IMG/VR virus record: IMGVR_UViG_2534681675_000024 | DNA: 16,949 nucleotides | Source of the DNA: a virus | Lineage: Duplodnaviria > Heunggongvirae > Uroviricota > Caudoviricetes | Direction: 5' to 3' (one strand) | In this document: piece by piece, positions 4,055 to 16,949 of the stretch | Layout: every line of letters starts with the position of its first letter | Numbering within the stretch: the stretch's first letter is position 1 | Program-made: the position numbers and the translations under genes | Notes under the pieces: model-generated | The model's input: the letters and a program-made list of their open reading frames with translations, nothing else | The model's database searches: none | Told to the model about the DNA's origin: nothing

Positions 4055-5082
4055 TACCCGTCCAGAAGAAGACATTTTCACTGGCTGGTATGTCTCCAAA
4101 ATCCAGCAATATGACGGCAAAGTCAGGCATTAATACAGCAGATACAAGCAAAGTTTATCATTTGCTGGTGGTCGGAACGGATGCCTTAACCATGCCAGAA
4201 ATCTCGGGCGATGATATTAGCGTTGAGAAGGTCAGCGGCTGCGCCAGAGAATTTCTGGTCGTAGATGACCTGTTCTGCTCGCGTAGTGACTCCACAAAAA
4301 TCTTCGTCCACGCGCGTGACGTTAACGAAATGAGCGCGATGTACTGTGCTTCTGGTGCTTCCAATAGCGAGTTTTCGGAGTCCATAAAAAAGAGCTTGCC
4401 GTTATGCGGCAACACGGTTTATGGTTATAAGGCACCTCATAAAACGGGTGCCGGGATTGGCCTCCCGCTGGAGTTATCGGCGATACATGACGCGCCAGCG
4501 TCTTTTTTTGTATCGGCGCACACGCACACCTTATCAATGGTGGGCTGTATGGGGCTACCTTCGGGTAGGCTGGTTTCCGATAACGCCAGTAAGGCCAACT
4601 CCGTACAGTCCACCGCCAGCAAGATTGGTCTCTTCTGCGGTGGTTATAACAAGCCAACGTTATCGGAGGATGCCACATGCTGGCTACTACCCCTACCCAA
4701 AAACCGCAATTTATCTGGATTATCGCCGCAGTTCGCCGCGATTGCCCGACAATTACCGCCAAAATTCATCATATTGCTGCCGAGTCTGAACGCGATGCTC
4801 GCCGTTCTCTGGTGCGCGATCACGTCTGCTTTTTTGCTGGTCGTATCCGCATGGAGGTGGCACATGATTAAAACCTACGATGTGCATATGGACCCCCTCG
4901 AACGCACAAGCCAGATCATCACACTGACAGAAGTGATTAATGACATTCTGGTGAGCAACTCTCCCTCACGAGACGAAAAACTGAAGGCGTTACTCGCGAT
5001 ATTGGATCTCGCCGTTCGTGACGTTCATTTCCTGCTGGAAGGTGGCGAAATGCCAGTAAAACGGGGGGCAACCAATGAATAA
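4051..5082 (+). CDS. Uncertain long ORF (343 codons); possibly several short genes or a partly non-coding leader
   Basis: The frame is open for 343 codons and has a good SD (GGAGG, 7 nt before ATG 4051). However, the first ~270 residues are unusually Ser/Cys/Trp-rich, the frame contains a terminator-like hairpin plus T7 run (4489-4509), and two internal starts have strong SDs: 4677 in another frame (GGAGGA) and 4864 in-frame (GGAGGTGG). Confidence 0.35.
4489..4509 (+). terminator. Terminator-like hairpin (GACGC-GCCA-GCGTC) followed by T7
   Basis: A 5-bp GC stem with a 4-nt loop is followed immediately by TTTTTTT. The stem is short, so function is uncertain. It lies inside the dubious 4051-5082 ORF. 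Confidence 0.3.
4864..5082 (+). CDS. Small hypothetical protein (72 aa), alternative in-frame start within the 4051-5082 ORF
   Basis: A strong SD (GGAGGTGG, 4853-4860) sits 3 nt before ATG 4864. The downstream sequence has ordinary helical-protein composition, and its stop overlaps the next start (ATGAATAA at 5075). Confidence 0.4.
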   Translation: MIKTYDVHMDPLERTSQIITLTEVINDILVSNSPSRDEKLKALLAILDLAVRDVHFLLEGGEMPVKRGATNE

Positions 5083-6354: not shown

Positions 6355-8706
6355 ATGCGAAACATTGATCTTATCCGTCAGGTTATCAGTGCGTCTGAAA
6401 ACAACTGGCCTCATGTGCTGGGCTGTCTGAACATAAATGTCCCTGACTCTCCGCGCCGTCATGCTCCCTGCCCTGCATGTGGGGGCAAAGATCGATTCCG
6501 GTTCGACGACAACGGGCGCGGTAGCTTCATCTGTAATCAGTGCGGCGCTGGTGATGGGCTGGATTTAATTAAACGCGTAAATAACTGCGACACAACAGAG
6601 GCGGCGCTTCTTGCCGCTGATGTTCTGGGTATTGATTACCGGACAACGGAAACACCAGAAGCCACCAGCCAGAAACGGGAACAACTGGAAACCGAGCGCC
6701 AGCGACGCGAACAGGAGCGCCTGAAAAGGGCAGAGAAGGACGAACAACAAAGACGGGATACGTTTTCCCGTCAGTTTGATGACATGCGCAGAAAGGCTGT
6801 AAACGGCAAATCTGATTATCTGGTTGCGAAAGGGGTAGGTGATTTTACATTCCCCGTGTTGCCAGATGGATCTCTGTTGCTGGCGCTGGTGGATAAATCC
6901 GGCGCAGTCACAGCAGCACAGACTATTACCTCACATGGTGAAAAAAGACTCCTGACAGGTTCAGCAAAGCGGGGGGCGTATCACGCCATAAACGCACAGA
7001 AACGACCTCACAGCATCATAATTGCTGAGGGTGTGGCTACCGCCCTGTCGTGCCATTTAATTCGCCCTGACGCAATGACAGTGGCAGCAATCGACGCTGG
7101 CAACCTGTTGCCAGTAGCGGAAGTCATGCGCAGAACATATCCACAGGCACAAATCATCATTGCCGCAGATAACGATCACCAGCAAGGAAACTCCGAAAGT
7201 GGAGGGATCAACACGGGGAAAGATGCCGCAGAGAGGGCCGCTATTTCCGTAGCTGGCTGGGTGTCTCTGCCACCGACTGACTATAAAGCCGACTGGAACG
7301 ACTATCACCAACAACACGGGCTGGCGGCAGCCACAGCAGCATTTAAAGATTCGATGTACCAGCCACGGGGGAAAGGGGCGCAGGTGAAAAATCACAAACA
7401 GTCAGTCGGGGCGCTTAATGAGATCAGTTCTGGCGAGGTGTTAAGCGATGATGAAATTGCTGTCCTCAAAGAAATCAACCGGACGTTTACGCATGTCACC
7501 ATCGGCGGGAAACACAAGGTGGTGTCGCTAAAGCCTTCTCAAACCGGCGGTGTATCGCACGTTTTCGAGGATTTATCACAATTTCAGCATTATTTTCATC
7601 ATAAACCGAGAGTCGCCAGAAAGCTGGCGGGATCGGCGTGGCTGTCATGGAGTGGGAAGAACTACAAGCCAGGAGGCGTAGGATTTTATCCAGTACCAGA
7701 CAAATGCCCTGACGATGTTTTTAATCTGTATGAGGGGCTGGCACTGGAACCAATTGAAGGAGATTGCACGGTATACCTTAATCACCTGTTGCAGGTTGTC
7801 TGTGCCGGTAATGAAGAGGCATACCAATATCTTATCCAGTGGATGGCGCACATTATCCAAAAGCCTGATGAAAAACCGTCCGTGGCAATCGTGATGAAAT
7901 CTGTCCCGGGCACAGGGAAAGGCACAACGGTTAAACCGCTGCTGCAAATACTGGGGCAGTACGCCGCCCACATTAACGGGGCGGGACATATTTCAGGGCG
8001 CTTCAATTCAATACTTGCTAACAAGCTACTGGTATTTGCTGACGAAGTGACGATCCACAAGCCGTCTGAAGCTGACAGACTTAAAGCGATTATTAGCGAA
8101 CCGACGTTTAACCTTGAGCGCAAGGGAATTGATGCTGAACCAATGCCGAATTTTGCCCGGTTGATATTTGCCAGTAACAGCACACAGGTATTACAGGCGG
8201 GGATAAGAGAGCGCCGCTATCTCGTGCTTGAGCCATCTCCTGAAAAAGCACAGAGCCGGGAGTATTTTGATCGGCTGTACAGTTGGCTTAATGATGGCGG
8301 TGCCGCAAAGTTGCTTTGGCATCTTAAAGGGGTGGATCTCTCAGGTTTTGACCCTCAACGAGCGCCACAGACCGATGCCTTACGTGAAGAAATCTTGCTG
8401 GGGCTGTCTGGCGTTGAATTGTTTCTTTATGGCGAGCTAATCAATGAACCTCCGTTTAATGGCGAAGTCCGTTTGTTTGCAAAGGATATGGTTAGTCGAT
8501 TTGTAGCGTGGTCGCTTGAGCGTGGGGAAAAGCTTAAAGAGCCAGCAGCCAGATCACTACTGGGTAAATCACTTGCACAAATGGGGCTGGTGAAGCATGG
8601 AAGACCAGACCGAGGGAATGGCGTGTTCTACGAACTACCAGAGGTCGGAGTTCTACAGGCTGCGTTTGCCCGTCTGATCGGTATGGGGGGTTATGATGTT
8701 TTTTAA
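6355..8706 (+). CDS. Replicative primase-helicase (zinc-finger + Toprim primase domain, C-terminal P-loop NTPase; P4 alpha / D5-like)
   Basis: 783-aa ORF with a G-rich SD. It has an N-terminal zinc-binding pair (CPACGG ... CNQCG), a Toprim-like acidic core (IIIAEGVATALS and AADNDHQQGN), and a C-terminal Walker A-like loop (VPGTGKGTT) with a Walker B-like hhhhDE (LLVFADEV). Size is close to P4 alpha. Confidence 0.9.
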   Translation: MRNIDLIRQVISASENNWPHVLGCLNINVPDSPRRHAPCPACGGKDRFRFDDNGRGSFICNQCGAGDGLDLIKRVNNCDTTEAALLAADVLGIDYRTTETPEATSQKREQLETERQRREQERLKRAEKDEQQRRDTFSRQFDDMRRKAVNGKSDYLVAKGVGDFTFPVLPDGSLLLALVDKSGAVTAAQTITSHGEKRLLTGSAKRGAYHAINAQKRPHSIIIAEGVATALSCHLIRPDAMTVAAIDAGNLLPVAEVMRRTYPQAQIIIAADNDHQQGNSESGGINTGKDAAERAAISVAGWVSLPPTDYKADWNDYHQQHGLAAATAAFKDSMYQPRGKGAQVKNHKQSVGALNEISSGEVLSDDEIAVLKEINRTFTHVTIGGKHKVVSLKPSQTGGVSHVFEDLSQFQHYFHHKPRVARKLAGSAWLSWSGKNYKPGGVGFYPVPDKCPDDVFNLYEGLALEPIEGDCTVYLNHLLQVVCAGNEEAYQYLIQWMAHIIQKPDEKPSVAIVMKSVPGTGKGTTVKPLLQILGQYAAHINGAGHISGRFNSILANKLLVFADEVTIHKPSEADRLKAIISEPTFNLERKGIDAEPMPNFARLIFASNSTQVLQAGIRERRYLVLEPSPEKAQSREYFDRLYSWLNDGGAAKLLWHLKGVDLSGFDPQRAPQTDALREEILLGLSGVELFLYGELINEPPFNGEVRLFAKDMVSRFVAWSLERGEKLKEPAARSLLGKSLAQMGLVKHGRPDRGNGVFYELPEVGVLQAAFARLIGMGGYDVF

Positions 8707-8730
8707 TATAGTCTTTTTACAAGAAGATCG

Positions 8731-8840
8731 TTTTTACCTGTACCACCTATACCACTTTGCTAATTCAGTATTAAAAACAGTGCGTTATAGTGGTACAGGT
8801 CAATATCTTACCTATACCAGACCTGTACCACCTATACCAT
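8731..8840. repeat. Iteron-like repeat cluster 1, immediately 3' of the primase-helicase gene (candidate ori)
   Basis: CCTGTACCACCTATACCA occurs at 8737-8754 and 8822-8839. An inverted copy TGGTACAGGT lies at 8791-8800 and an extra CCTATACCA at 8811-8819. The same core family recurs in cluster 2. Confidence 0.6.
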
Positions 8841-8882
8841 TAACAAACGCATTTCTTCTGGCTGGCTGAGAGGAAACAACCA

Positions 8883-9113
8883 ATGATGAGCACACCATTT
8901 TACAAAGTGCGCCAGTTAGCTTCTTCCTCTGGCTGGCAGCTGCGGTTTGAGGGGCGTTCAGACTGGCTACCCATTGCGGCATGGGCGAATGTTGAAATGT
9001 GTATTGACGGCGATACCGTTGAAATCATTATTCCCTGCGTGGCAAGTCGGGACGGCTGTATAGAGCCAACAGATATGGCAGCAGAAATCAGAGAGGTAAA
9101 ACATGAACAATAA
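8883..9113 (+). CDS. Small hypothetical protein (76 aa)
   Basis: SD GAGAGGA upstream of ATG 8883; its stop overlaps the next gene's start. No domain recognised. Confidence 0.6.
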   Translation: MMSTPFYKVRQLASSSGWQLRFEGRSDWLPIAAWANVEMCIDGDTVEIIIPCVASRDGCIEPTDMAAEIREVKHEQ

Positions 9114-9840
9114 CTATTGCATACCGCAGGGAATGACCAGAACGGAGCGCGAAGAATTAAAAAGTTTCGCTACACAGTGCGGGAATGCTGGCGACATCCA
9201 AAGTCTGGAACGCACTTTAATTATGATTGCGCACTGGATGCGTCAGGGGCAAAGGGTTTCATTTACTGAATATGCCAGCCAGTGGACAGAGGCACAGCGC
9301 GAACGGAGCGACGGTAATCACTCAACACCCGAAATGGCGAAGCAATGGCCTTTCAGTGGTAAACGCTGTATCAGTCCCGGTGGTTCAGATTATTACCCTG
9401 CTGGTGTGGGAGATGAGCCATGTTGTGACGAGACTGAAATCCGCCACGCAGTGACAGTAATTACCGCTGAATACCCACAATTTAACCTTGACGGACTGGC
9501 GCTCCACAACCGGAATGCGGACTGGGAAAACCCGCTTGATAACCCGTCATTTATCGTATCGGCGAAAAGCTGCCTGAGATGGATCAGAGACAACGGGATG
9601 AGTAATGCCCAGATTGAGAGCTTCCCGCAGGATAACCCCACATCTGACACGTTGAAGCATGAAGTGGAGCGATATAACCAGATAAACCACCAGCACAGTG
9701 ATCACCCGCACTATATCCCCAACGGAGCATTTATTGCGGCGATGGTGGCAAGCGGCTACAAGGTTAAGCCAGCGGGAAGAATGAACGCATTTTTCAATAT
9801 TTCAAAAAAGGGATTATGTGCTGCTATGGGTAAAAATTAA
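9103..9840 (+). CDS. Hypothetical protein (245 aa)
   Basis: SD GAGAGG before ATG 9103, coupled to the upstream gene. Protein-like composition, no recognisable domain. Confidence 0.7.
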   Translation: MNNNYCIPQGMTRTEREELKSFATQCGNAGDIQSLERTLIMIAHWMRQGQRVSFTEYASQWTEAQRERSDGNHSTPEMAKQWPFSGKRCISPGGSDYYPAGVGDEPCCDETEIRHAVTVITAEYPQFNLDGLALHNRNADWENPLDNPSFIVSAKSCLRWIRDNGMSNAQIESFPQDNPTSDTLKHEVERYNQINHQHSDHPHYIPNGAFIAAMVASGYKVKPAGRMNAFFNISKKGLCAAMGKN

Positions 9841-9845
9841 ATAAA

Positions 9846-9949
9846 TGGTACAGGTCTGTACAGGTGGGGAGAGGTCATTTTTACCCACCTGTACCACCTA
9901 CAGGCCGCGTCACACAAGGGTTTGTGACATGGTGGTACAGGTGGTACAG
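9846..9949. repeat. Iteron-like repeat cluster 2 (same family as cluster 1) plus a GTCACA-N8-TGTGAC palindrome
   Basis: TGGTACAGGT at 9846-9855, CTGTACAGGTGG at 9856-9867, ACCTGTACCACCTA at 9887-9900, and tandem inverted GGTGGTACAGGTGGTACAG at 9931-9949. A palindrome GTCACACAAGGGTTTGTGAC lies at 9909-9928. TTTTTACC precedes the repeat in both clusters. Confidence 0.6.
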
Positions 9950-10314
9950 CAAAAACAGCGATTTTCTTTATAAGGTATGTTTTGCTCATCTGGCAGGCGG
10001 AGGTATTCGCTGCGGTTTGGCACATAGCCCAGAACAGCAAAGAGTTTTACGAGACTTTTGTAAAATCCAGTGTACAAGGGCGTGACGTTTTTGAAGGAGA
10101 GACCTACGAAATTTTCGTAGTTCAAAAAATAGCCTCTGAGATGTTGTTATGCCTGTTCAGCAAACCATCCGCATAGCTGATCGCGAATCAAATTACCAAT
10201 GGAGCCAGAAGCAAGGGCAGAACTGGAAAGCGCCTGCCGTGAAGAGTAATGCGACATCGTAAATATAGTTTTTAGAGTCCATAAAAAACCTGTCAAAACC
10301 TGACATACAGAACG

Positions 10315-10347
10315 ATGCCACCAGCTACTGAGCGGTGGCATTTTTTT
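10315..10347 (+). terminator. Rho-independent terminator
   Basis: An 8-bp stem (ATGCCACC / GGTGGCAT) with an 11-nt loop is followed by TTTTTTT. Confidence 0.7.
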
Positions 10348-10391
10348 GTGCTATTTGTTTCATATTTTGCAATCACAATGATGAATGTTGC

Positions 10392-10433
10392 GTTTTATGA
10401 AACTATAATGACTGTTGTTTTATACAGTTATAA
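10392..10433 (+). promoter_or_regulatory. Candidate promoter/operator for the 10443-14192 operon
   Basis: Two imperfect 17-bp direct repeats (GTTTTATGAAACTATAA at 10392-10408 and GTTTTATACAGTTATAA at 10417-10433) overlap a TATAAT hexamer at 10404-10409. No good -35 is seen. Confidence 0.3.
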
Positions 10434-10442
10434 GGGGGCGTT

Positions 10443-10616
10443 ATGGCTATTTCAGTAAAGCCAGTATTGATAAGTGAGAAGCAAATGGAAGCGATAAAGA
10501 AAATTCAGGAGGAGCAGCGTAAAAAATCAGAGGTAGGAGTTGCGCCAACGATCCACGAAATTGCTCGGGGATTAATGGATAAGGCGCTGGCTTACACTTT
10601 AACTGGACGTGGGTAA
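10443..10616 (+). CDS. Small hypothetical protein (57 aa), first gene of a three-gene operon
   Basis: Not in the supplied ORF track (below its length threshold). ATG 10443 is preceded by a strong SD (AAGGGGG). The stop at 10614-10616 lies 4 nt before the next ATG (10621). Helical composition; a regulatory role is only a guess. Confidence 0.5.
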
Positions 10617-10620
10617 ATTT

Positions 10621-12087
10621 ATGGCTACTTGGCAACAAGGAATCAACTCAGGCGGTTTTCTGGCTGGCATCGGTACGCAAAATGAGAATGCGCCAAAGGC
10701 AAGCGACATTAACGCAACGCTTGGTCTGATCCGCGAAAACAATGAACTGGCTCGCTCAGGTGCAAATAACGTTGGTCTGACCGCGTTACGTGGTCTGGCT
10801 GGAGTTGCTGATATTTATAAGCAGGAACAGCAACAGAAAGCGATTAATGCGTTCAATAAGGTTCACGCTGATGCATGGGCTTCTGGTGATCCATCGGGAC
10901 TATTTAAGTTTGCCCAGGAAAATCCAGCGTTTGTTGCACAGGTACAACAGGCGTTTTCTGGTCTTAATGATCAGCAACGCAACGATATGGGCGATTTAGC
11001 CATGAGGGCTAACGTCGCTCTTTCTCAGGGACCGGAAGCCTACAGTAAATTCATTACTGACAACAAGGACAGGTTAAATCGCGTTGGTGCTAATGCTGAC
11101 TGGATGATTCAGACAGGTATCCAGAATCCAGAGCAGCTATCACACATGCTGACTACTATGTCTCTCGGTGCGCTTGGACCAGAAAAGGCGTTTGCTGTTC
11201 AGGATAAGATGGTTGGTCGTGAGATTGACCGAGGCCAGCTGGCAGAGACAATCCGCAGCAATAAGGCTGGAGAGGCACTTCAGGCGAGAGGGCAGGATAT
11301 TAGCCGAGCAAATGCGTTAACGTCAGCATATGCACCAACAGCCGCAATGCAGAATTACAATCAGTACGCGCAAATGTTAAAGGCGGACCCAGAGGGGGCG
11401 GCGGCATTTGCGGCAGCGGCTGGAATTAATACAAACGCCAAAAAATTAATGAGTGTTAGAGAAAACGATGATGGCACTGTCACAAAATACTACACAGACG
11501 GAAGTGAAGAGCAGGGAAAACTAAACCAGCCAATATCTGGAGATGGGTTTCGTCCAATAGCTTTGCCAACAGCCCAAAAGATCATGGAAAAGTCGCCAGA
11601 AGGGGCTAAAAAAGCTGCTGGATTTGCATACAGGGTTAGGGATGCTCTTGATTCAATAGATACACTGAAAGACCAGCTTAGCCCACAGCGAGTGGCGATC
11701 ATTAATAATGCTTTGGGTAATGGGACGCTGGCTAACTTAACGCTCAGCCCAGCAGAGCAGCAATACGTTGTTAATGCTAATGACGCAATAATGGCAATAC
11801 TCCGTCAGGAAACAGGGGCATCTATCCTACCAGCTGAAATGTCCAAATATTATCAAATGTATTTCCCTCAGCCTGGTGATTCCACAAAAACCATTGATAC
11901 CAAGCGCCGGAAGATGGAAAACCAGTTCAATTCGCTGAAAGCTGCTTCTGGTCGAGCTTATGATGCTTTGCGGGTTATTTCAGCAGTTGACAGAGGAACT
12001 TCTTCTTCGTCGCAGACATTGCCGCAATCTGAGCAGGTATCACAGCCAGCAGCCAGCAGTAATTTTTCTTCACTATGGGGTGATTAA
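10621..12087 (+). CDS. Large hypothetical protein (488 aa), Cys-free, Ala/Gln/Asn/Gly-rich, predicted mostly alpha-helical
   Basis: ATG 10621 chosen over the track's 10609. No Cys, few aromatics, Q/A-rich low-complexity stretches, and no enzymatic motif I can identify. Its stop overlaps the next start (TAATG). Confidence 0.8.
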
Positions 12088-14192
12088 TGGCTAAAGCATG
12101 GAAAGATGTTATCGCTTCTCCACAGTATCAGGCGTTAGCACCAGAACAAAAAGCGCAGGCTCAGGAGCAATACTTCAATGAAGTCGTGGCCCCGCAAGCC
12201 GGAGAAAGTGTAGAGCAGGCTAAGCAGGCTTTTTATGCTGCCTATCCACTACCATCAACGAATGAAATAAACCGATCCCAATCAGCAACTCAAAATATTC
12301 AACATACATCATCTGATAATTCTCTTGCGTCAGGGTATGCAAAGTTAGCTACTCAGCAAAGAGAGGGGCTTGAGCGTTCAGCAGAACAGGGAGCCAGTCT
12401 TGGGGCTGCGATGCGCGATGCTATAACAGGCGAAAGCCGAATGACTCCAGAGATGGAGAGACTGCAAAATGTCGACCTTGCCCCAGAGTTAACCTCACTC
12501 AGCATGGATGCTCTAAAAGCTCGATGGTCTCAACTTTTCGGCTCTGACGCATCTCAGGAAAAGATTCTTCAGAGCATGGGAGCGAAATTAAGGCAGGATG
12601 AGAAGGGTAACACTATCGTTTCCCTGCCATCCGGTGATTATGCTCTGAACAAGCCGGGTTTATCGCCGCAAGACGTGGCATCGTTTCTGGCTAATGCGCT
12701 GGCGTTTACACCAGCGGGCAGGGCTGGAACGGTGCTTGGTGCCATAGGAAAATCAGCAGCTACAGATTTAGCACTACAGGGAGCCACCAGCCTTGCTGGT
12801 GGAGAAGATATTGATCCGTTACAAACGGTAATTTCTGCTGGCATTGGTGGTATTGGTAAGGGGCTGGAAAATACAGCGAGTGCGGTTTCGAGGGCTGTTC
12901 GTGGTGATATGTCGCCTGAAGCAAAGGCTGCTGTCGACTTTGCATCGGAAAGAAATCTGCCGTTAATGACCAGTGACATGCTGAAAGATAAAACCTTTAT
13001 GCAGAGTCAGGCTCAGACATTAGGCGAAAGAGTTCCTTTTTTTGGAACCGGTAAGAATCGGCTGAATCAACAACAAGCACGAGAAAATTTAGTCAGAACA
13101 TTTAGCGATGGTCTGGGGGGAATTTCAGATAAACAGCTTTATGAGTCTGCGACTAAAGGGCAGCAAAAATTCATTGAGGCAGCAGGAAAGCGATATAACC
13201 GCATAATTGACGCTATGGGGGATACCCCTGTCGATCTCTCAAACACGGTAAAAACTATCGACAATCAGATTGCCGTGTTAAGCCGCCCTGGCAAATCTCA
13301 GGATAGAGCCGCGGTAAAAGTCTTGCAGCAATTTAAAGACGATATCACCAGCGGACCAAATGACCTGCGTCTGGCGAGGGAAAACAGAACCGATCTTCGA
13401 AAGCGATTTATAGCGTCATCTGACACTGTTGATAAAGATACGCTCCAGAAAGCCAGCGATATTATCTACAAGGCATATACGGCGGATATGAAAAAAGCCG
13501 TAGCCAAAAATCTTGGAGCAGACGAAGCCATTAATATGGCAAGGGTTGATCGCTCATGGTCTAAATTCAATGACATGATGGGAAGAACGCGCGTTCAAAA
13601 GGCAATAGCCAGCGGCAAGGCCACGCCTGAGGATGTAACAAAACTCGTTTTTAGCCAAAGCCCATCAGAACGTTCTCAGCTTTACAGGCTTCTGGATGAC
13701 AATGGTAGGCAAAACGCACGAGCAGCTATAGTTCAGAATGCTGTAGATAAGGCGACTGATCCGTCTGGAAATATCAGTGTTGAGAAGTTTATTAATGCGT
13801 TACACCGGAACAGGAAGCAATCAGCAACTTTCTTTAAAGGCGTACATGGAAAGGAACTGGACGGCGTTATTAAATACCTCAACGATACAAGACACGCGGC
13901 AAAAGCGAACGTTCAAAACTTAAATGGTCAGCAGCTTTATGGATTGTTAGTTGGTGGTGGCATCATAAACGCAGCAGTATTAGCGGGGATGCTAAAAACG
14001 GCTGCGTTTGTTGTTCCTGCTGCTGGTGCCGTAGGCGGAGCAGCGAAGGCATACGAAAGCCCTGTTATACGAAATGCCTTGTTACGTCTGGCAAATACGC
14101 CAAAAGGTAGCACAGCATATGACAGAGCGATCAGTACGGTCACACAATCGCTCACCAGAGTCGCACAGGCATCACAAAAAGAATCTCAATAA
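12087..14192 (+). CDS. Large hypothetical protein (701 aa), Cys-free, helical, with a C-terminal Gly/Ala-rich hydrophobic hairpin
   Basis: Long uninterrupted ORF coupled to the upstream gene. The segment LYGLLVGGGIINAAVLAGMLKTAAFVVPAAGAVGGAAKAY (about nt 13934-14056) looks like a membrane-insertion hairpin. GIGKG and GAIGKS do not fit true Walker A spacing. Confidence 0.85.
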   Translation: MAKAWKDVIASPQYQALAPEQKAQAQEQYFNEVVAPQAGESVEQAKQAFYAAYPLPSTNEINRSQSATQNIQHTSSDNSLASGYAKLATQQREGLERSAEQGASLGAAMRDAITGESRMTPEMERLQNVDLAPELTSLSMDALKARWSQLFGSDASQEKILQSMGAKLRQDEKGNTIVSLPSGDYALNKPGLSPQDVASFLANALAFTPAGRAGTVLGAIGKSAATDLALQGATSLAGGEDIDPLQTVISAGIGGIGKGLENTASAVSRAVRGDMSPEAKAAVDFASERNLPLMTSDMLKDKTFMQSQAQTLGERVPFFGTGKNRLNQQQARENLVRTFSDGLGGISDKQLYESATKGQQKFIEAAGKRYNRIIDAMGDTPVDLSNTVKTIDNQIAVLSRPGKSQDRAAVKVLQQFKDDITSGPNDLRLARENRTDLRKRFIASSDTVDKDTLQKASDIIYKAYTADMKKAVAKNLGADEAINMARVDRSWSKFNDMMGRTRVQKAIASGKATPEDVTKLVFSQSPSERSQLYRLLDDNGRQNARAAIVQNAVDKATDPSGNISVEKFINALHRNRKQSATFFKGVHGKELDGVIKYLNDTRHAAKANVQNLNGQQLYGLLVGGGIINAAVLAGMLKTAAFVVPAAGAVGGAAKAYESPVIRNALLRLANTPKGSTAYDRAISTVTQSLTRVAQASQKESQ

Positions 14193-14211
14193 CTGGTTAG
14201 CCATGGATGGC

Positions 14212-14826
14212 TTAAATATCTCTGCTGTCTCCATTAGGAAATAAAAGATAATATGGATTTGCCTTTCTTGCTCTCCTTGCTTCACCTGGATACCTGTTAG
14301 TCAGTAGCTTGCATAATGAGCAGAGAACAACACTCAAGAAAATTCCGAATGAGAAGATCAATATCTCACCAAAAATCAATGGCGATATTAAATTTTCAGG
14401 ATTTAATGATAAGTCAATGTTAAAAACATATTGAGCAATACCAGTAAGTATCAATAATATAATCCCTATGGAATACATTGCTGTTTCCCAAACATCAGAC
14501 AGTCTATTTTTGAATTTTTCGCTGGAGTAGTAGTTTGTTATAAAGTCAGAAAAATCACTCTCATATGCATCATCTTTAGGTGATGTTAGAAATCCTCTGT
14601 CTCTCCATACCTTCTCCCAATTAGTCGATTCTTTTTTTAAGGAAAAATAAATATGTATTGCCAAAAGGATAGCCAAAATTGGTGTTAGCTCTAAAAAATA
14701 GAATGTTATGGAATAAATAATACTGCCATGTTCAAACTCATCTGGGACTATCATGTATGCACAAAAATAAATTGAAAAGTACACCATGCAGATAGTTAGC
14801 AATTCTTTAGTATCTTTTCTGCTCAC
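14212..14826 (-). CDS. Integral membrane protein (about 204 aa, four predicted TM helices), strongly AT-rich
   Basis: Four hydrophobic stretches of about 20 residues each, with a basic C-terminal tail (RRARK). GTG start at 14826 is preceded by SD AAGGGGG; an alternative ATG is at 14787. The gene is markedly AT-rich relative to its neighbours and converges on the 701-aa gene with only 19 bp between stops. Confidence 0.8.
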   Translation of the reverse strand: MSRKDTKELLTICMVYFSIYFCAYMIVPDEFEHGSIIYSITFYFLELTPILAILLAIHIYFSLKKESTNWEKVWRDRGFLTSPKDDAYESDFSDFITNYYSSEKFKNRLSDVWETAMYSIGIILLILTGIAQYVFNIDLSLNPENLISPLIFGEILIFSFGIFLSVVLCSLCKLLTNRYPGEARRARKANPYYLLFPNGDSRDI

Positions 14827-15007
14827 ACCAACCCCCTTTAGCGTTGTTTAGAATGGCAATCATCATATATCCAAGACATGGCATTTGGTACATAGCTTGG
14901 GTCGGGATTTCAAATCCGCTCCCAGTTGATGGGGCCGTTACATTACGCGCATATCCGCTTTATGTGAAACAGGAAGATTTTTCTGATATCACTGCCACAG
15001 CAAACAC

Positions 15008-15036
15008 CAATTTCGTGACCAGTACGCGCGCGAGGG
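15008..15036 (+). repeat. Repeat family copy 1 (CAATTTCGTGACCAGTACGCGCGCGAGGG)
   Basis: About 29 nt with a CGCGCGCG core; matches copy 4 (16904-16933) at roughly 23 of 29 positions. Confidence 0.6.
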
Positions 15037-15041
15037 GTATC

Positions 15042-15063
15042 AGTTGCAAAAAATTTTGCAACT
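15042..15063. repeat. Near-perfect palindrome AGTTGCAAAAAATTTTGCAACT between repeat copies 1 and 2
   Basis: 9-bp arms GTTGCAAAA / TTTTGCAAC. A related palindrome GTGCAAATTTGCAC lies at 16746-16759. Confidence 0.5.
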
Positions 15064-15065
15064 AC

Positions 15066-15094
15066 GTCCGACCAGTACGCGCACGATGGAGGGG
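15066..15094 (+). repeat. Repeat family copy 2 (GACCAGTACGCGCACGATGGAGGGG)
   Basis: Shares GACCAGTACGCGC-CGA---GGGG with copy 1. Confidence 0.55.
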
Positions 15095-15295
15095 AGTACC
15101 ATAAAACTGTTCTCTACATGAGACAGAGTGGTGGTGATGTGTTGATTATCGGCGTATATGCGCACAGGACGCGCTATGACGATGTTTTATGCGGGTACAC
15201 CAATCACATGTATCTGGTGTGATAAATCGCGTTACATGACATCTCATGTTGTGCTGGTGATTATCACGACGTTCTGAATCTGGCCTTTGCCTGAT

Positions 15296-15322
15296 ATTTT
15301 GCGACAAGTACGCGCGCGTAGC
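15296..15322 (+). repeat. Repeat family copy 3 (TTTTGCGACAAGTACGCGCGCGTAGC)
   Basis: Same GAC-AGTACGCGCGCG core. A weaker partial copy (CATTTTGTGACCAATGCG) lies at about 15349-15366. Confidence 0.55.
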
Positions 15323-15346
15323 ATCAACAGCATACACATTGGATAT

Positions 15347-15547
15347 TCATTTTGTGACCAATGCGATAAGTAGCGGGATAAGAATTGATAAAATCAACAG
15401 GACGATGATCCACTTTTGATTCTCGTCCATCTTATCTGCTAGGCGACGCTCCATTCCGTGCATATCACCGCGAATGGCAATCATCTCATTGCGAACATCC
15501 GAGAAGTGGTTGGCTTGATGTTCAATGTGTGGCGTTCTGCCTTTCAT
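15347..15547 (-). CDS. Small C-terminally anchored membrane protein (66 aa), XhlA/holin-like topology
   Basis: ATG at 15547 with SD GAGGA about 7 nt upstream. Polar, charged N-terminal half followed by a single C-terminal TM helix (WIIVLLILSILIPLLIALV). The family call is tentative. Confidence 0.6.
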   Translation of the reverse strand: MKGRTPHIEHQANHFSDVRNEMIAIRGDMHGMERRLADKMDENQKWIIVLLILSILIPLLIALVTK

Positions 15548-15626
15548 GTCTGATCCTCACCTATCGTCACCACCTGCTGGTGTATAAAGGTATTAGCCCA
15601 AGCAGCTTTCCAATGGGCACTCATGT

Positions 15627-16082
15627 TTATACGCTGACCTTACAATCAATCACCGCTTTTAACTTTTCAGCATTGCTTCCCTGACGCTTCCACGCGCTGT
15701 AAATATCTTTATCCCACGCTTTACCAGCTTTTGTTTGATAGCCTGCTTCATTGATCCGTTCAGCTATCACACGCCCATTATCAAATCCCTGTTGGATGGT
15801 ATCGGCAATGATCTTTATAACTGCCGTTTCGTTATATGGTTTTGGTGGGATGTTCGGCTTTCCGGCAATAAGCGACGCAGCGGCTTTTTCCATGCGCTCC
15901 ACCAGCCCAAGCATTCGTGAATCAATAGACTTTTCCGGCTGCCCCAGCTTCATGCGAATCGCATCAACAAGCCAAGAGGTTTTATCTCCTCCAGAAGCGA
16001 GAACAGACCGATTAAACTCATCCTGCAATTCAGATGGGATGCGGAACGCGATCAGATTAGATTTGCTCATTGCAAAGACCAT
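15627..16082 (-). CDS. Ribbon-helix-helix (Arc/CopG-like) DNA-binding protein with a C-terminal recombinase-like helical domain (151 aa)
   Basis: The N-terminus has a classic RHH pattern (LIAFRIPSELQDEFNRSVLASGGDKTSWLVDAIRMKL). The C-terminal segment GRVIAERINEAGYQTKAGKAWDKDIYSAWKR resembles the recombinase-domain motif of serine recombinases, but there is no catalytic domain. Start could be 16082 or 16070; no clear SD. Confidence 0.7.
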   Translation of the reverse strand: MVFAMSKSNLIAFRIPSELQDEFNRSVLASGGDKTSWLVDAIRMKLGQPEKSIDSRMLGLVERMEKAAASLIAGKPNIPPKPYNETAVIKIIADTIQQGFDNGRVIAERINEAGYQTKAGKAWDKDIYSAWKRQGSNAEKLKAVIDCKVSV

Positions 16083-16183
16083 ATCAGTGAGTAATATCCA
16101 TACAGTATACCACTGTATAACACTGTTATACGCTCAAATATCAGCCAGAAAATAACAGACCAATCACAAATCTATCGCTGTGT

Positions 16184-16306
16184 TGTTGGTTCAGAGCTGG
16201 GCTGTGTTGGTTCAAAATGAGTTGATGTTGGTTCAATATTTTAGAAAAAACACAATAAAAACAACGCTCTTTACAAATTGAACCAACTGAACCAACTGAA
16301 CCAACA
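16184..16306. promoter_or_regulatory. Operator/iteron array: three TGTTGGTTCA direct repeats at 21-bp spacing plus three tandem inverted TGAACCAAC copies
   Basis: Direct copies at 16184-16193, 16205-16214 and 16226-16235. After an AT-rich spacer, TGAACCAAC repeats sit at 16279-16287, 16288-16296 and 16297-16305. A TATAAT hexamer at 16323-16328 and SD GAGAGG precede the perC-like ATG. Confidence 0.7.
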
Positions 16307-16341
16307 CCTTTTTGCTTATCTATATAATCTGAGAGGCAGAA

Positions 16342-16629
16342 ATGATAAAGGACAGGAAAGCTGAAGAGCTGGAGTCAAAAGGGCTATACCGGAGAGCTGC
16401 CGCGCGATGGGCAGAAGTCATGATGCTGGCAGATGGCGATAAAGAACGTGAACATGCAGCAAACAGACGCTCTGAATGTATCCGTAAGGCGGCACGCCCA
16501 CCAGCAACTACAGACAGATTCGGAGATTTAAGACAGGCAGTTAAGCGGACTCATTCGGCTCTTGGTATGGATGAGGAAGCGAGAGGGTACTTCAGGCGTT
16601 ATCGCGATAAAGATTGCCAGAGACAGTAA
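16342..16629 (+). CDS. PerC-family transcriptional regulator-like protein (95 aa)
   Basis: Size and the N-terminal motif ESKGLYRRAAARWAEVM resemble PerC/Pch-family regulators known from EPEC/EHEC plasmids and prophages. TATAAT and an SD lie upstream. Confidence 0.7.
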   Translation: MIKDRKAEELESKGLYRRAAARWAEVMMLADGDKEREHAANRRSECIRKAARPPATTDRFGDLRQAVKRTHSALGMDEEARGYFRRYRDKDCQRQ

Positions 16630-16903
16630 TGCTCTCTCTGTTTTGGCAAATTACCCCTCACTTTGAAGGGATCGGAGCTATAAAAATGGTGTTATCCGGC
16701 TTCCTCAAATTGAGGATTGTGGAAGAATCAATGGGTTAGGTCATCGTGCAAATTTGCACTCTGCCAGCCAACGCAATTTCTCGTTGGCGGAAATATCAGG
16801 TATTTACTGAACGAACGGTCTACCAGTCTGTTCAGTTACCAGTTGCACATGGCTGTTTCATGTGAGAACGGAGGTTTTTTTCGGACATCGCTATTGGGTA
16901 CAG

Positions 16904-16933
16904 CAATTTCACGAGCAATACGCGCGCGCAGGA
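16904..16933 (+). repeat. Repeat family copy 4 (CAATTTCACGAGCAATACGCGCGCGCAGG)
   Basis: Close match to copy 1 at 15008-15036. It sits at the window edge, where a short minus-strand ORF appears to start at 16949. Confidence 0.55.
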
Positions 16934-16949
16934 CAACAAGCCTGAACAT

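Follow-up and report, generated by a model that had tools for sequence, protein, structure and literature searches.

Gene content of the locus

The window, i.e. the whole stretch of DNA analysed here (IMGVR_UViG_2534681675_000024, 16,949 nt), is a Caudoviricetes record that holds a 16.9-kb (~17-kb) PICI-type element. It contains int, AlpA (PF05930, scoring 26.5 bits with the cut-off at 21), AntA, Ash, primase and PerC genes. The gene order int, alpA, primase/rep, a size within ~10-20 kb and the absence of capsid, tail and lysis genes agree with the features by which Gram-negative PICIs are recognised. Downstream of the replication module lie the following features:

10306-10350, plus strand: intrinsic terminator (fold and T run) closing the upstream, replication-side transcription unit
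10404-10409 and 10410-10429, plus strand: promoter -10 element TATAAT and the abutting predicted LexA/SOS box GACTGTTGTTTTATACAGTT (consensus and PWM)
10443-10616, plus strand: small leader gene, 57 aa, residues 1-50 conserved, tail varying with the cassette
10621-12087, plus strand: P22 gp20-type ejection protein, 488 aa (periplasmic conduit), chimeric (PF16928, phrog_917)
12087-14192, plus strand: P22 gp16-type ejection protein, 701 aa (inner-membrane section of the conduit; phrog_770, BLASTP)
14212-14826, minus strand: SieA-like inner-membrane protein, 204 aa, convergent with gene 16 as in P22
10592-14821, no strand: replaceable cassette (small-gene tail, ejection-protein genes, envelope/exclusion gene) between conserved island flanks

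The terminator hairpin (dG -23.8 kcal/mol, z -6.55) was matched in stability by none of 200 shuffles, is followed by T7 and is kept in the E. coli sister islands. Two 17-nt direct repeats (10392-10408 and 10417-10433) largely coincide with TATAAT and a CTGT-N8-ACAG palindrome. The stop codon TAA of the small gene (10614-10616) is separated by 4 nt from the gp20 ATG, and the gp20 and gp16 genes overlap in TAATG (12085-12089). The two large proteins contain no Cys in 1189 residues, compared to 1.54% Cys in the other island proteins, and are rich in Ala (14%), Gln (7.5%), Gly (7.7%) and Asn (5.9%). In its description of the locus the first-pass annotation was right throughout: the upstream terminator and repeat-flanked promoter region were recovered, the ORF check bore out three coupled genes of 57, 488 and 701 aa, the composition is as it had stated, and the island gene content agrees with an operon downstream of the replication module of a satellite or PICI. 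The terminator, promoter and small-gene unit is present in 499 of 5426 complete E. coli genomes (~9%), 85 of the 5426 carrying the entire block 10392-14900.

Homology of the large proteins to P22 ejection proteins

The 488-aa protein matches PF16928 (Inj_translocase) with an E value of 3.6e-118 and 393 bits (cut-off 29.7) over profile positions 1-217 of 218, and phrog_917 over its full length (aa 1-488, 3.6e-159). It begins like P22 gp20 with MATWQQ if the ATG is used; an upstream GTG would give 492 aa. Residues 1-239 are 89% identical to P22 gp20, and the DNA of this part shows 95-96% identity to phages N7 and Kapi1, a near-identity that shows recent exchange. The essential C-terminal half is 63% identical to gp20 of phage APSE and has no similarity to the C-terminal half of P22's own gp20. 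Judged by these alignments, gp20 is chimeric, with an N-terminal half of the P22/N7/Kapi1 type and a C-terminal half of the APSE type, a mosaicism familiar for gene 20.

The 701-aa protein matches phrog_770 ('DNA transfer protein') over aa 19-699 with 2.8e-160. BLASTP aligned it to P22 gp16 with 30% identity over aa 210-683 (E 2e-52) and to HS1 gp16 (4e-48), while identity to gp16 of phage N7 reaches 67-68%. A Gly of the window protein aligns with G532 of P22 gp16. P22, N7, Kapi1 and HS1 likewise have gene 16 directly behind gene 20 and coupled to it, with a convergent envelope gene next. NCBIfam gave no match for the operon proteins. Homology identifies the 488- and 701-aa proteins as gp20 and gp16 ejection proteins of the P22 type, and by the same homology they are putative virion components that leave ahead of the DNA and are needed for its delivery. 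Their composition is a trait of the family, since gp7, gp20 and gp16 of every phage and island examined are Cys-free and rich in Ala, Gln, Asn and Gly. The gp20 C-terminal half and the gp16 allele of the window are rare in sequenced coliphages and common in islands.

A SieA-like gene behind gene 16

The product of the convergent gene has four hydrophobic segments, which are predicted transmembrane segments. Aligned with P22 SieA it is 29% identical (E 6e-8), and with the type-B SieA of prophage HS1, which is functional, 34% identical (E 2e-9); RYPGEA falls within both alignments. It also matches phrog_7745 ('SieA-like') with 2e-4. SieA proteins share the cytoplasmic motif FxRYPxEAxxFNK (PMC10883804); the corresponding stretch TNRYPGEARRARK matches the RYPxEA core and not the full motif. 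The protein is a divergent SieA homologue, possibly of a further SieA type. In the cases examined by Leavitt et al., sieA was located only in P22-like prophages. By its position and sequence the SieA-like gene belongs with the ejection-protein unit, and its exclusion function, a block on DNA injection by P22-like phages, is putative.

Predicted SOS control of the operon promoter

The exact palindrome CTGT-N8-ACAG lies at 10412-10427, immediately 3' of TATAAT, and is the only such match in the window, with 0.18 expected. The LexA box, predicted from a consensus and a position weight matrix, scores 16.2 bits in the window, 18.2 bits in sister E. coli islands and 20.6 bits in Serratia, against a baseline of 13.9 bits (95th percentile of the shuffle maximum). 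In the promoter alignment of the E. coli and Serratia islands TGAAACTATAAT plus ACTGT is invariant across the genera. Scores of at least 12.5 bits were reached by 17 of 57 IMG/VR relatives, compared to 0.5% of control windows; in more distant relatives the palindrome is one base shorter (CTG-N9-CAG). The sole other exact match in L003 is the known SOS box of dinD. A generic sigma-70 scan found no site above threshold at the operon promoter due to its poor -35 element; the combination of a perfect -10 and a poor -35 was recognised by eye and from the alignment. The operon is probably switched on by DNA damage via the predicted LexA box, a regulatory connection with the SOS response that can be tested.

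The 57-aa leader protein

The leader protein has 45 homologues in Escherichia, Serratia, Klebsiella, Raoultella, Erwinia and Salmonella, with 21 invariant columns in the family alignment. In the AF2 model (pLDDT 74) helices span residues 12-28 and 37-53, and the topology of an extended N-terminus and two helices is compatible with an RHH protein. Since Pfam, NCBIfam, a PDB profile search and Foldseek on the model returned no meaningful match, the RHH assignment remains a guess, and the modelled topology is at best two-helix and RHH-like. The tails vary by cassette; that the tail of the 57-aa protein is a fused C-terminal remnant of gp7 was rejected.

Cassette exchange and purifying selection

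Window and L003 are 98.6% identical over 6355-10591 and 96.4% identical over 14822-16949, and show no similarity in between. Most sampled leader-gene units precede P22-type ejection-protein genes in many allelic combinations, and the sister islands hold other alleles in the cassette slot, often as a complete 14-7-20-16 set. In Serratia islands the small gene is followed by gp20, gp16 and a membrane gene on the minus strand. Among the 57 IMG/VR leader-gene loci, the primase precedes the small gene in every one with enough upstream sequence, and no Kapi1-like portal, coat or TerL was found in the loci examined. All 14 of the IMG/VR loci with P22-type cargo have both gp20 and gp16, nine of them with gp14 and gp7 ahead. 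The envelope gene swaps independently while the gp16 type remains unchanged, and in more distant relatives other ejection-type proteins and a TerS-like gene occupy the same slot. The gp20/gp16 pair is kept across genera behind the leader gene, and its alleles are replaced between conserved flanks.

The island copies of gp20 and gp16 are under purifying selection, with dN/dS of 0.04-0.17 (0.04 and 0.11 in Serratia islands, from 49 and 85 differences; 0.12-0.17 for the EcCIMP1 type; 0.13 for gp16 of the window compared to L001).

Relation to EcCIMP1

The window is collinear with EcCIMP1, a PICI of E. coli MP1 (Pick, Stadel & Raivio, ISME J 2025; PMC11773190). Excision, replication and transfer of EcCIMP1 take place only when Kapi1, a P22-like helper phage, is present; the island is transduced by this phage and adds superinfection immunity to it by a mechanism left unexplained (PMC11773190). 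The window is an EcCIMP1-like PICI, a satellite of P22-like podophages with a putative dependence on such a helper. No copy of the EcCIMP1 att core TCCTATTATC, no att repeats and no tRNA occur within the window; since it begins at the int ATG, attL lies outside. TerS-like, gp14 and gp7 genes were not detected in the window by tblastn. As a cue for annotation, 'phage DNA ejection protein' genes adjoining a P4-type primase point to a satellite and not to a decayed P22-like prophage.

Discussion

The locus is not a new kind of system; it is a satellite with its own DNA-injection parts. Of the functions considered in the first-pass annotation, phage ejection or internal virion proteins proved to be the fitting one. 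As a role for these parts, we consider it reasonably probable that the island supplies a matched, SOS-induced gp20/gp16 pair to capsids built by the helper, complemented by SieA-like exclusion. DNA damage would inactivate LexA and at the same time induce the helper prophage. The island would then produce its own gp20 and gp16, which would be incorporated into helper procapsids, while the helper would provide gp14 and gp7 as conserved, interchangeable parts. Particles with island DNA would thereby use an island-type conduit for its delivery. In P22, foreign ejection proteins assemble into virions, gp16 and gp20 have to match each other, and gp7 is interchangeable (PMC10883804). This fits islands that retain genes 20 and 16 yet may lose 14 and 7.

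Several observations stand against this model. Transfer of EcCIMP1 by Kapi1 is of very low efficiency (PMC11773190), neither TerS nor a known pac determinant was seen in the window, the SieA-like protein shares only 29-34% identity with tested SieAs, and an ejection-protein gene is disrupted in two or three of the 14 P22-type loci. More distant relatives have the predicted LexA palindrome in a form shorter by one base. With EcCIMP1 gp20 and gp16 at 26% and 24% identity to those of Kapi1, conduits of mixed origin might fail to function instead of being useful.

The same proteins could instead harm the helper: as dominant-negative alleles that mix with those of the helper in procapsids, island gp20 and gp16 would render helper progeny non-infectious. 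PICIs generally interfere with their helpers (PMC6092414), and mismatched gp16/gp20 gives non-infectious P22 particles though the foreign protein is assembled (PMC10883804). The island alleles are far from those of the known helper; gp20 and gp16 of EcCIMP1 are only 26% and 24% identical to those of Kapi1. We nevertheless regard interference as unlikely, because Kapi1 titres after induction are not lowered by EcCIMP1 (PMC11773190), and because ejection proteins are loaded before DNA packaging, so that poisoning would equally hit island-carrying particles. Moreover, one mismatched gene would suffice, yet 14 of 14 P22-type loci keep both and many add gp14 and gp7.

Still less likely is a piece of a P22-like late operon that was captured by recombination, with selection acting on the envelope/exclusion gene or on nothing and with gp20 and gp16 as passengers. 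The 20-16-sieA order and orientation are identical to P22, the gp20 N-terminal part was recently exchanged with N7/Kapi1-type phages (95-96% DNA identity), and a few island copies are disrupted. However, both genes are under purifying selection in the islands (dN/dS 0.04-0.17), and Escherichia and Serratia alike keep the pair, with the conserved promoter and the leader gene in front. The envelope gene swaps while the gp16 type stays, the slot is taken in more distant relatives by further ejection-type proteins and a TerS-like gene, and the alleles common in islands are rare in sequenced coliphages. Full-length homology to ejection proteins, which together with neighbouring capsid/tail genes in related elements the first-pass annotation would have taken as the mark of a structural-module remnant, was indeed found; the remnant itself was not borne out: the genes lie in a capsid-less island between island-specific flanks, as a pair shared across genera, under purifying selection and with a conserved promoter of their own.

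A third explanation, which we hold to be very improbable, is a defence made from phage parts, in which cell-resident gp20 and gp16 would jam the conduit of an incoming P22-like phage together with the SieA-like protein. SieA acts via gp16 and gp20 of the incoming phage (PMC10883804), EcCIMP1 raises superinfection immunity to Kapi1 (PMC11773190), and the position that had suggested defence cargo in the first-pass annotation would apply here as well. Yet P22 SieA alone is sufficient for exclusion (PMC10883804), export signals are absent from gp20 and gp16, which as a rule get to the envelope by ejection alone, and a LexA-repressed promoter would silence the operon in the uninduced cell, where exclusion is needed. 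Defence cargo in general found no backing in PADLOC, which gave no match for ten island proteins at E <= 0.01. Finally, there is the reading of the first-pass annotation, in which novel low-complexity proteins make up an accessory, toxin or defence system not described before. Its only supports are the unusual composition and a location downstream of the replication genes, and it is refuted by the full-length, highly significant homology of both proteins to gp20 and gp16 and by a composition that is a family trait.

Returning to the supply of a matched gp20/gp16 pair, its use in transducing particles would let these proteins set which cells the island can enter, and would tie the spread of the satellite to the arms race between SieA and ejection proteins. 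The superinfection immunity that EcCIMP1 confers might be explained by the envelope gene after gene 16. Tentatively, and with considerable doubt, we extend this to a PICI family that customises the DNA delivery of its helper: hypervariable, matched gp20/gp16 pairs under SOS control would be loaded into helper capsids, an exclusion gene of its own would be carried along, and satellite particles could enter cells that exclude the helper conduit, e.g. SieA-positive lysogens, which are exactly the cells holding a helper. If true, this would be the first satellite to alter ejection, where others act on capsid size, packaging or late transcription.

Comparison with known systems

Capsid size, late transcription and the specificity of the terminase are helper functions that satellites are known to redirect. 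To our knowledge, satellites supplying proteins for DNA passage across the recipient envelope have not been described, and our literature search for satellites with ejection proteins found nothing besides EcCIMP1. EcCIMP1 and the window share the order int, AlpA, hypothetical gene, AntA, DUF4222, Ash/Icd, small genes, primase, leader, ejection-protein genes and PerC, 87-96% DNA identity over the shared backbone segments, and the same leader-gene/promoter unit. They differ in integrase and insertion site, and in cargo: EcCIMP1 carries gp14, gp7, gp20 (439 aa), SLT-gp16 (906 aa) and a lipoprotein gene, whereas the cargo of the window is limited to gp20 (488 aa), gp16 (701 aa) and the SieA-like gene. 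The alleles of the two islands are unrelated, with 29% identity for gp20 and no BLAST match between the gp16 proteins. The EcCIMP1 genes were labelled 'DNA transfer/possible packaging', and their P22 14-7-20-16 identity, SieA and the LexA box are not mentioned (PMC11773190).

With the P22-like phages (Lederbergvirus) the window shares the 20-16-sieA order, the stop/start overlap, the convergent sieA, Cys-free proteins, the domain mosaic and the RYPxEA motif. Unlike in these phages, its genes are not preceded by capsid and tail genes in a late operon, and genes 14 and 7 are absent; they stand in a capsid-less satellite, with their own promoter and a satellite-specific leader gene. A further likeness is to the packaging/morphogenesis operon I of SaPIs, the staphylococcal PICIs, which is LexA-repressed according to Ubeda 2007, as cited in PMC6092414. 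Both operons are virion-related and lie downstream of the replication module, and a LexA operator over the promoter is predicted for the window. While SaPI operon I contains TerS, capsid-size and interference genes, the window operon encodes ejection proteins instead.

Operon architecture and identity of its products

The first-pass annotation had proposed the operon downstream of the primase as a candidate for an undescribed accessory system. By homology it is instead the ejection-protein cassette of an island like EcCIMP1, the phage-inducible chromosomal island (PICI) of E. coli MP1. Its features are:

10404-10409, + strand, -10 element TATAAT, a perfect match, before the small gene
10410-10429, + strand, predicted LexA-type box GACTGTTGTTTTATACAGTT, CTGT-N8-ACAG abutting TATAAT
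10443-10616, + strand, small gene (57 aa)
10621-12087, + strand, gp20-like gene (488 aa)
12087-14192, + strand, gp16-like gene (701 aa)
14212-14826, convergent with the gp16-like gene, SieA-like gene (204 aa)

Four nucleotides separate the small-gene stop from the ATG of the 488-aa gene, which overlaps the 701-aa gene in TAATG. Upstream lies a hairpin (10306-10350; -23.8 kcal/mol, z -6.55) followed by seven T, and two 17-nt direct repeats lie between this terminator and the start codon of the small gene. Ala, Gln, Gly and Asn are abundant in the two large proteins, whose 1189 residues include no Cys, compared to 1.54% Cys among the island's other proteins. ORF, fold, repeat and composition checks thus bear out the tightly coupled three-gene operon, the terminator, the repeats and the Cys-free composition. 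This composition is a family trait of the P22 ejection proteins gp7, gp20 and gp16, since all those examined, from phages P22 and N7 and Kapi1-type islands to Serratia, are A/Q/N/G-rich and, except for one with a single Cys, Cys-free.

The 488-aa protein matches Pfam Inj_translocase ('DNA/protein translocase of phage P22 injectosome'; 3.6e-118) and, over its whole length, phrog_917 (3.6e-159). Over residues 1-239 it shares 89% identity with P22 gp20 and 92-94% with gp20 of the coliphages Kapi1 and N7; at the DNA level its N-part is 95-96% identical to N7 and Kapi1. The C-terminal half (11338-12084) is unlike P22 gp20, and nothing close to it occurs among sequenced E. coli or Salmonella phages; the phage sequence nearest to it is gp20 of the P22-like APSE phages of the aphid symbiont Hamiltonella (63% amino-acid identity). 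Recombination with phage alleles can be seen inside gp20, where a patch at codons 50-200 differs between the window and the related island L001 while the frame stays intact. The 701-aa protein matches phrog_770 ('DNA transfer protein') over residues 19-699 (2.8e-160) and shares 30% identity with P22 gp16 over residues 210-683 (E 2e-52) and 67-68% with N7 gp16. These homologies refute the idea of an undescribed system, and the alternative of a structural-module remnant is likewise unsupported.

The 204-aa protein has four hydrophobic segments. It shares 29% identity with the P22 superinfection exclusion protein SieA and 34% with SieA of prophage HS1, a functional type-B protein. The RYPGEA core falls within both alignments and belongs to the motif that Leavitt et al. 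single out as the best conserved in SieA (PMC10883804).

Island backbone

Elsewhere in the window lie genes for a tyrosine integrase, an AlpA-family regulator, an AntA antirepressor, an Ash-family protein, a Toprim/DUF5906 primase and a PerC-family regulator, and none of the gene products is a capsid, tail or lysis protein. Gene set and order are those of Gram-negative PICIs. Rfam models for isrK (4432-4508, +, 64 bits) and C4 antisense RNA (4533-4620, +, 77 bits) exceed their gathering scores within the stretch that carries the Ash-family/Icd-like annotation, which suggests a P1/P4-type antisense-RNA immunity element. Near the right end, a 60-nt stretch (16681-16740) shares 88% identity with part of Kapi1_032, the antirepressor gene of Kapi1, and also matches 'KilAC antirepressor' genes of many E. 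coli prophages. Between primase and terminator lie two + strand ORFs (8883-9113, 76 aa; 9103-9840, 245 aa) with no meaningful family match, the longer giving only a marginal hit to phrog_9576 (function unknown, E 7e-4). Since both are present in sister island L003 and absent from L001 and EcCIMP1, 8883-9840 is a second variable region of the island.

Cassette boundaries and alternative contents

The window and L003 share 98.6% identity as far as position 10591 and 96.4% from 14822 to the right end; the stretch in the middle does not align. The left junction thus follows codon 50 of the small gene, as is also concluded from the last 3-7 residues of its product, which vary with the cassette (YTLTGRG in the window, 10592-10616; GCM in L003, 11293-11305; SLASEGA in the related island L004, 11291-11315); the right junction lies at the 5' end of the sie-like gene. 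The L003 cassette comprises gp14 (DUF2824), gp7 (PF25688), gp20, gp16 and a 4-TM protein, that of EcCIMP1 and the EcCIMP1-type island L006 gp14, gp7, gp20, a 906-aa SLT-gp16 and a lipoprotein, while the L004 cassette has no ejection genes. Serratia islands share backbone and two-gene layout with different alleles (small gene, 448-aa gp20, 943-aa SLT-gp16, minus-strand membrane gene). Serratia sister islands also carry RnlA/RnlB toxin-antitoxin or Abi_2 genes near the right end (L009 17949-19384; L008 16650-17612), and therefore defence cargo beyond the ejection cassette.

The leader unit of terminator, promoter and small gene occurs in 499 of 5426 complete E. coli genomes. Since the window type accounts for 85, the EcCIMP1 type for 72 and the L003 type for 3, many more combinations must exist. 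An IMG/VR scan with the small protein as query gave 57 loci. The primase precedes the small gene wherever upstream sequence is present, and Kapi1-like portal, coat or TerL genes occur within 9 kb in none of the 57. Fourteen loci carry both gp20 and gp16, with gp14 and gp7 in front in nine; most others encode one large protein that resembles SLT/gp16 or an 'injection transglycosylase', in many cases with a TerS-like gene behind it. Klebsiella/Raoultella-type relatives (L011-L013, L030-L072) have the small gene, then one 566-844-aa protein resembling tape-measure proteins, internal virion proteins or injection transglycosylase; a TerS-like gene often comes next. Across the family, the slot after the small gene holds virion-related cargo.

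The island copies of gp20 and gp16 evolve under purifying selection, with dN/dS values between Serratia copies of 0.04 for gp20 and 0.11 for gp16; EcCIMP1-type copies compared with each other give 0.12-0.17, and gp16 of the window compared with that of L001 gives 0.13. A disrupted ejection gene occurs in two or three of the 14 IMG/VR loci. The small protein has 45 homologues in several enterobacterial genera with 21 invariant positions, and two Serratia copies differ by four synonymous and no non-synonymous changes. In its AF2 model the N-terminus is extended and two helices follow, which could fit a ribbon-helix-helix fold, for which sequence and fold searches gave no support.

A predicted LexA operator

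Alignment of the regions that precede the small gene in Escherichia, Serratia, Raoultella and Klebsiella islands revealed an invariant TGAAACTATAAT directly followed by ACTGT...ACAG; TATAAT with CTGT-N8-ACAG (10404-10429) is conserved in the E. coli and Serratia islands, and in more distant relatives the palindrome is shortened by one base (CTG-N9-CAG). The 17-nt repeats largely coincide with the TATAAT/LexA-type element. CTGT-N8-ACAG, the E. coli LexA consensus core, has a single exact match in the window (0.18 expected by chance); in L003 only one further exact match occurs, the genuine SOS box of the neighbouring dinD gene. With an approximate LexA matrix, built from about twenty LexA boxes, the box scores 16.2 bits in the window, 18.2 in the sister islands of E. 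coli and 20.6 in Serratia; best scores in shuffled windows have a 95th percentile of 13.9. By the same approximate matrix, 17 of the 57 IMG/VR relatives reach at least 12.5 bits, compared to 0.5% of control windows. We predict that the small-gene operon carries a LexA operator over its promoter. Two further matrix matches are TACTGTATGGGCAACCACTA (2323-2342, 12.3 bits), some 45 nt ahead of the alpA-like gene, and TGCTGGATTTGCATACAGGG (11616-11635, 17.3 bits), which lies inside the gp20-like gene and is probably due to chance.

Proposed function

In P22, gp7, gp20 and gp16 are ejected ahead of the DNA and form a trans-envelope conduit. P22 virions take up foreign ejection proteins; gp20 and gp16 have to be a matched pair, while gp7 is interchangeable; SieA blocks injection via gp20 and gp16, and some ejection-protein types (HK620) escape it (Leavitt et al., PMC10883804). 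Given these data, the proposed and most economical reading is that the island expresses its own matched gp20/gp16 pair upon SOS induction, therefore in step with helper induction, and that the pair is incorporated into helper procapsids, with gp14 and gp7 coming from the helper and the sie-like gene shielding the resident cell. A rival reading is an exclusion complex. Another regards gp20 and gp16 as hitch-hikers, but one gp16 type is found sometimes with the SieA-like gene and sometimes with another membrane gene, so the ejection genes do not simply ride along with the exclusion gene. That the pair poisons the helper is disfavoured, because one mismatched gene would suffice and yet both are kept in all 14 P22-type IMG/VR loci, and because EcCIMP1 does not lower Kapi1 titres; a working conduit would fit better.

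Comparison with known systems

EcCIMP1, collinear with the window, excises only upon induction of the P22-like phage Kapi1, which transduces it at low frequency; it also strengthens immunity to superinfection by Kapi1 (PMC11773190). The 232-aa protein encoded after its gp16 at the P22 sieA position (L006 14834-15532; L007 4932-5630), with a lipoprotein signal (…SLLAGC), is a candidate source of this immunity. 'DNA transfer'/DUF2824-like genes downstream of the EcCIMP1 primase were noted as possible packaging genes; the identity with P22 14-7-20-16 was not made, and SieA and LexA are not mentioned (PMC11773190). The P22 E-protein identity, the hypervariable nature of the cassette, the presence of a SieA-like gene in a satellite and the predicted LexA operator are newly spelled out here. 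As cited in PMC6092414, SaPI operon I is a precedent for a LexA operator on a satellite virion-related operon (Ubeda et al. 2007). The layout of the cassette, 20-16 followed by a convergent sieA-like gene, is exactly that of P22.
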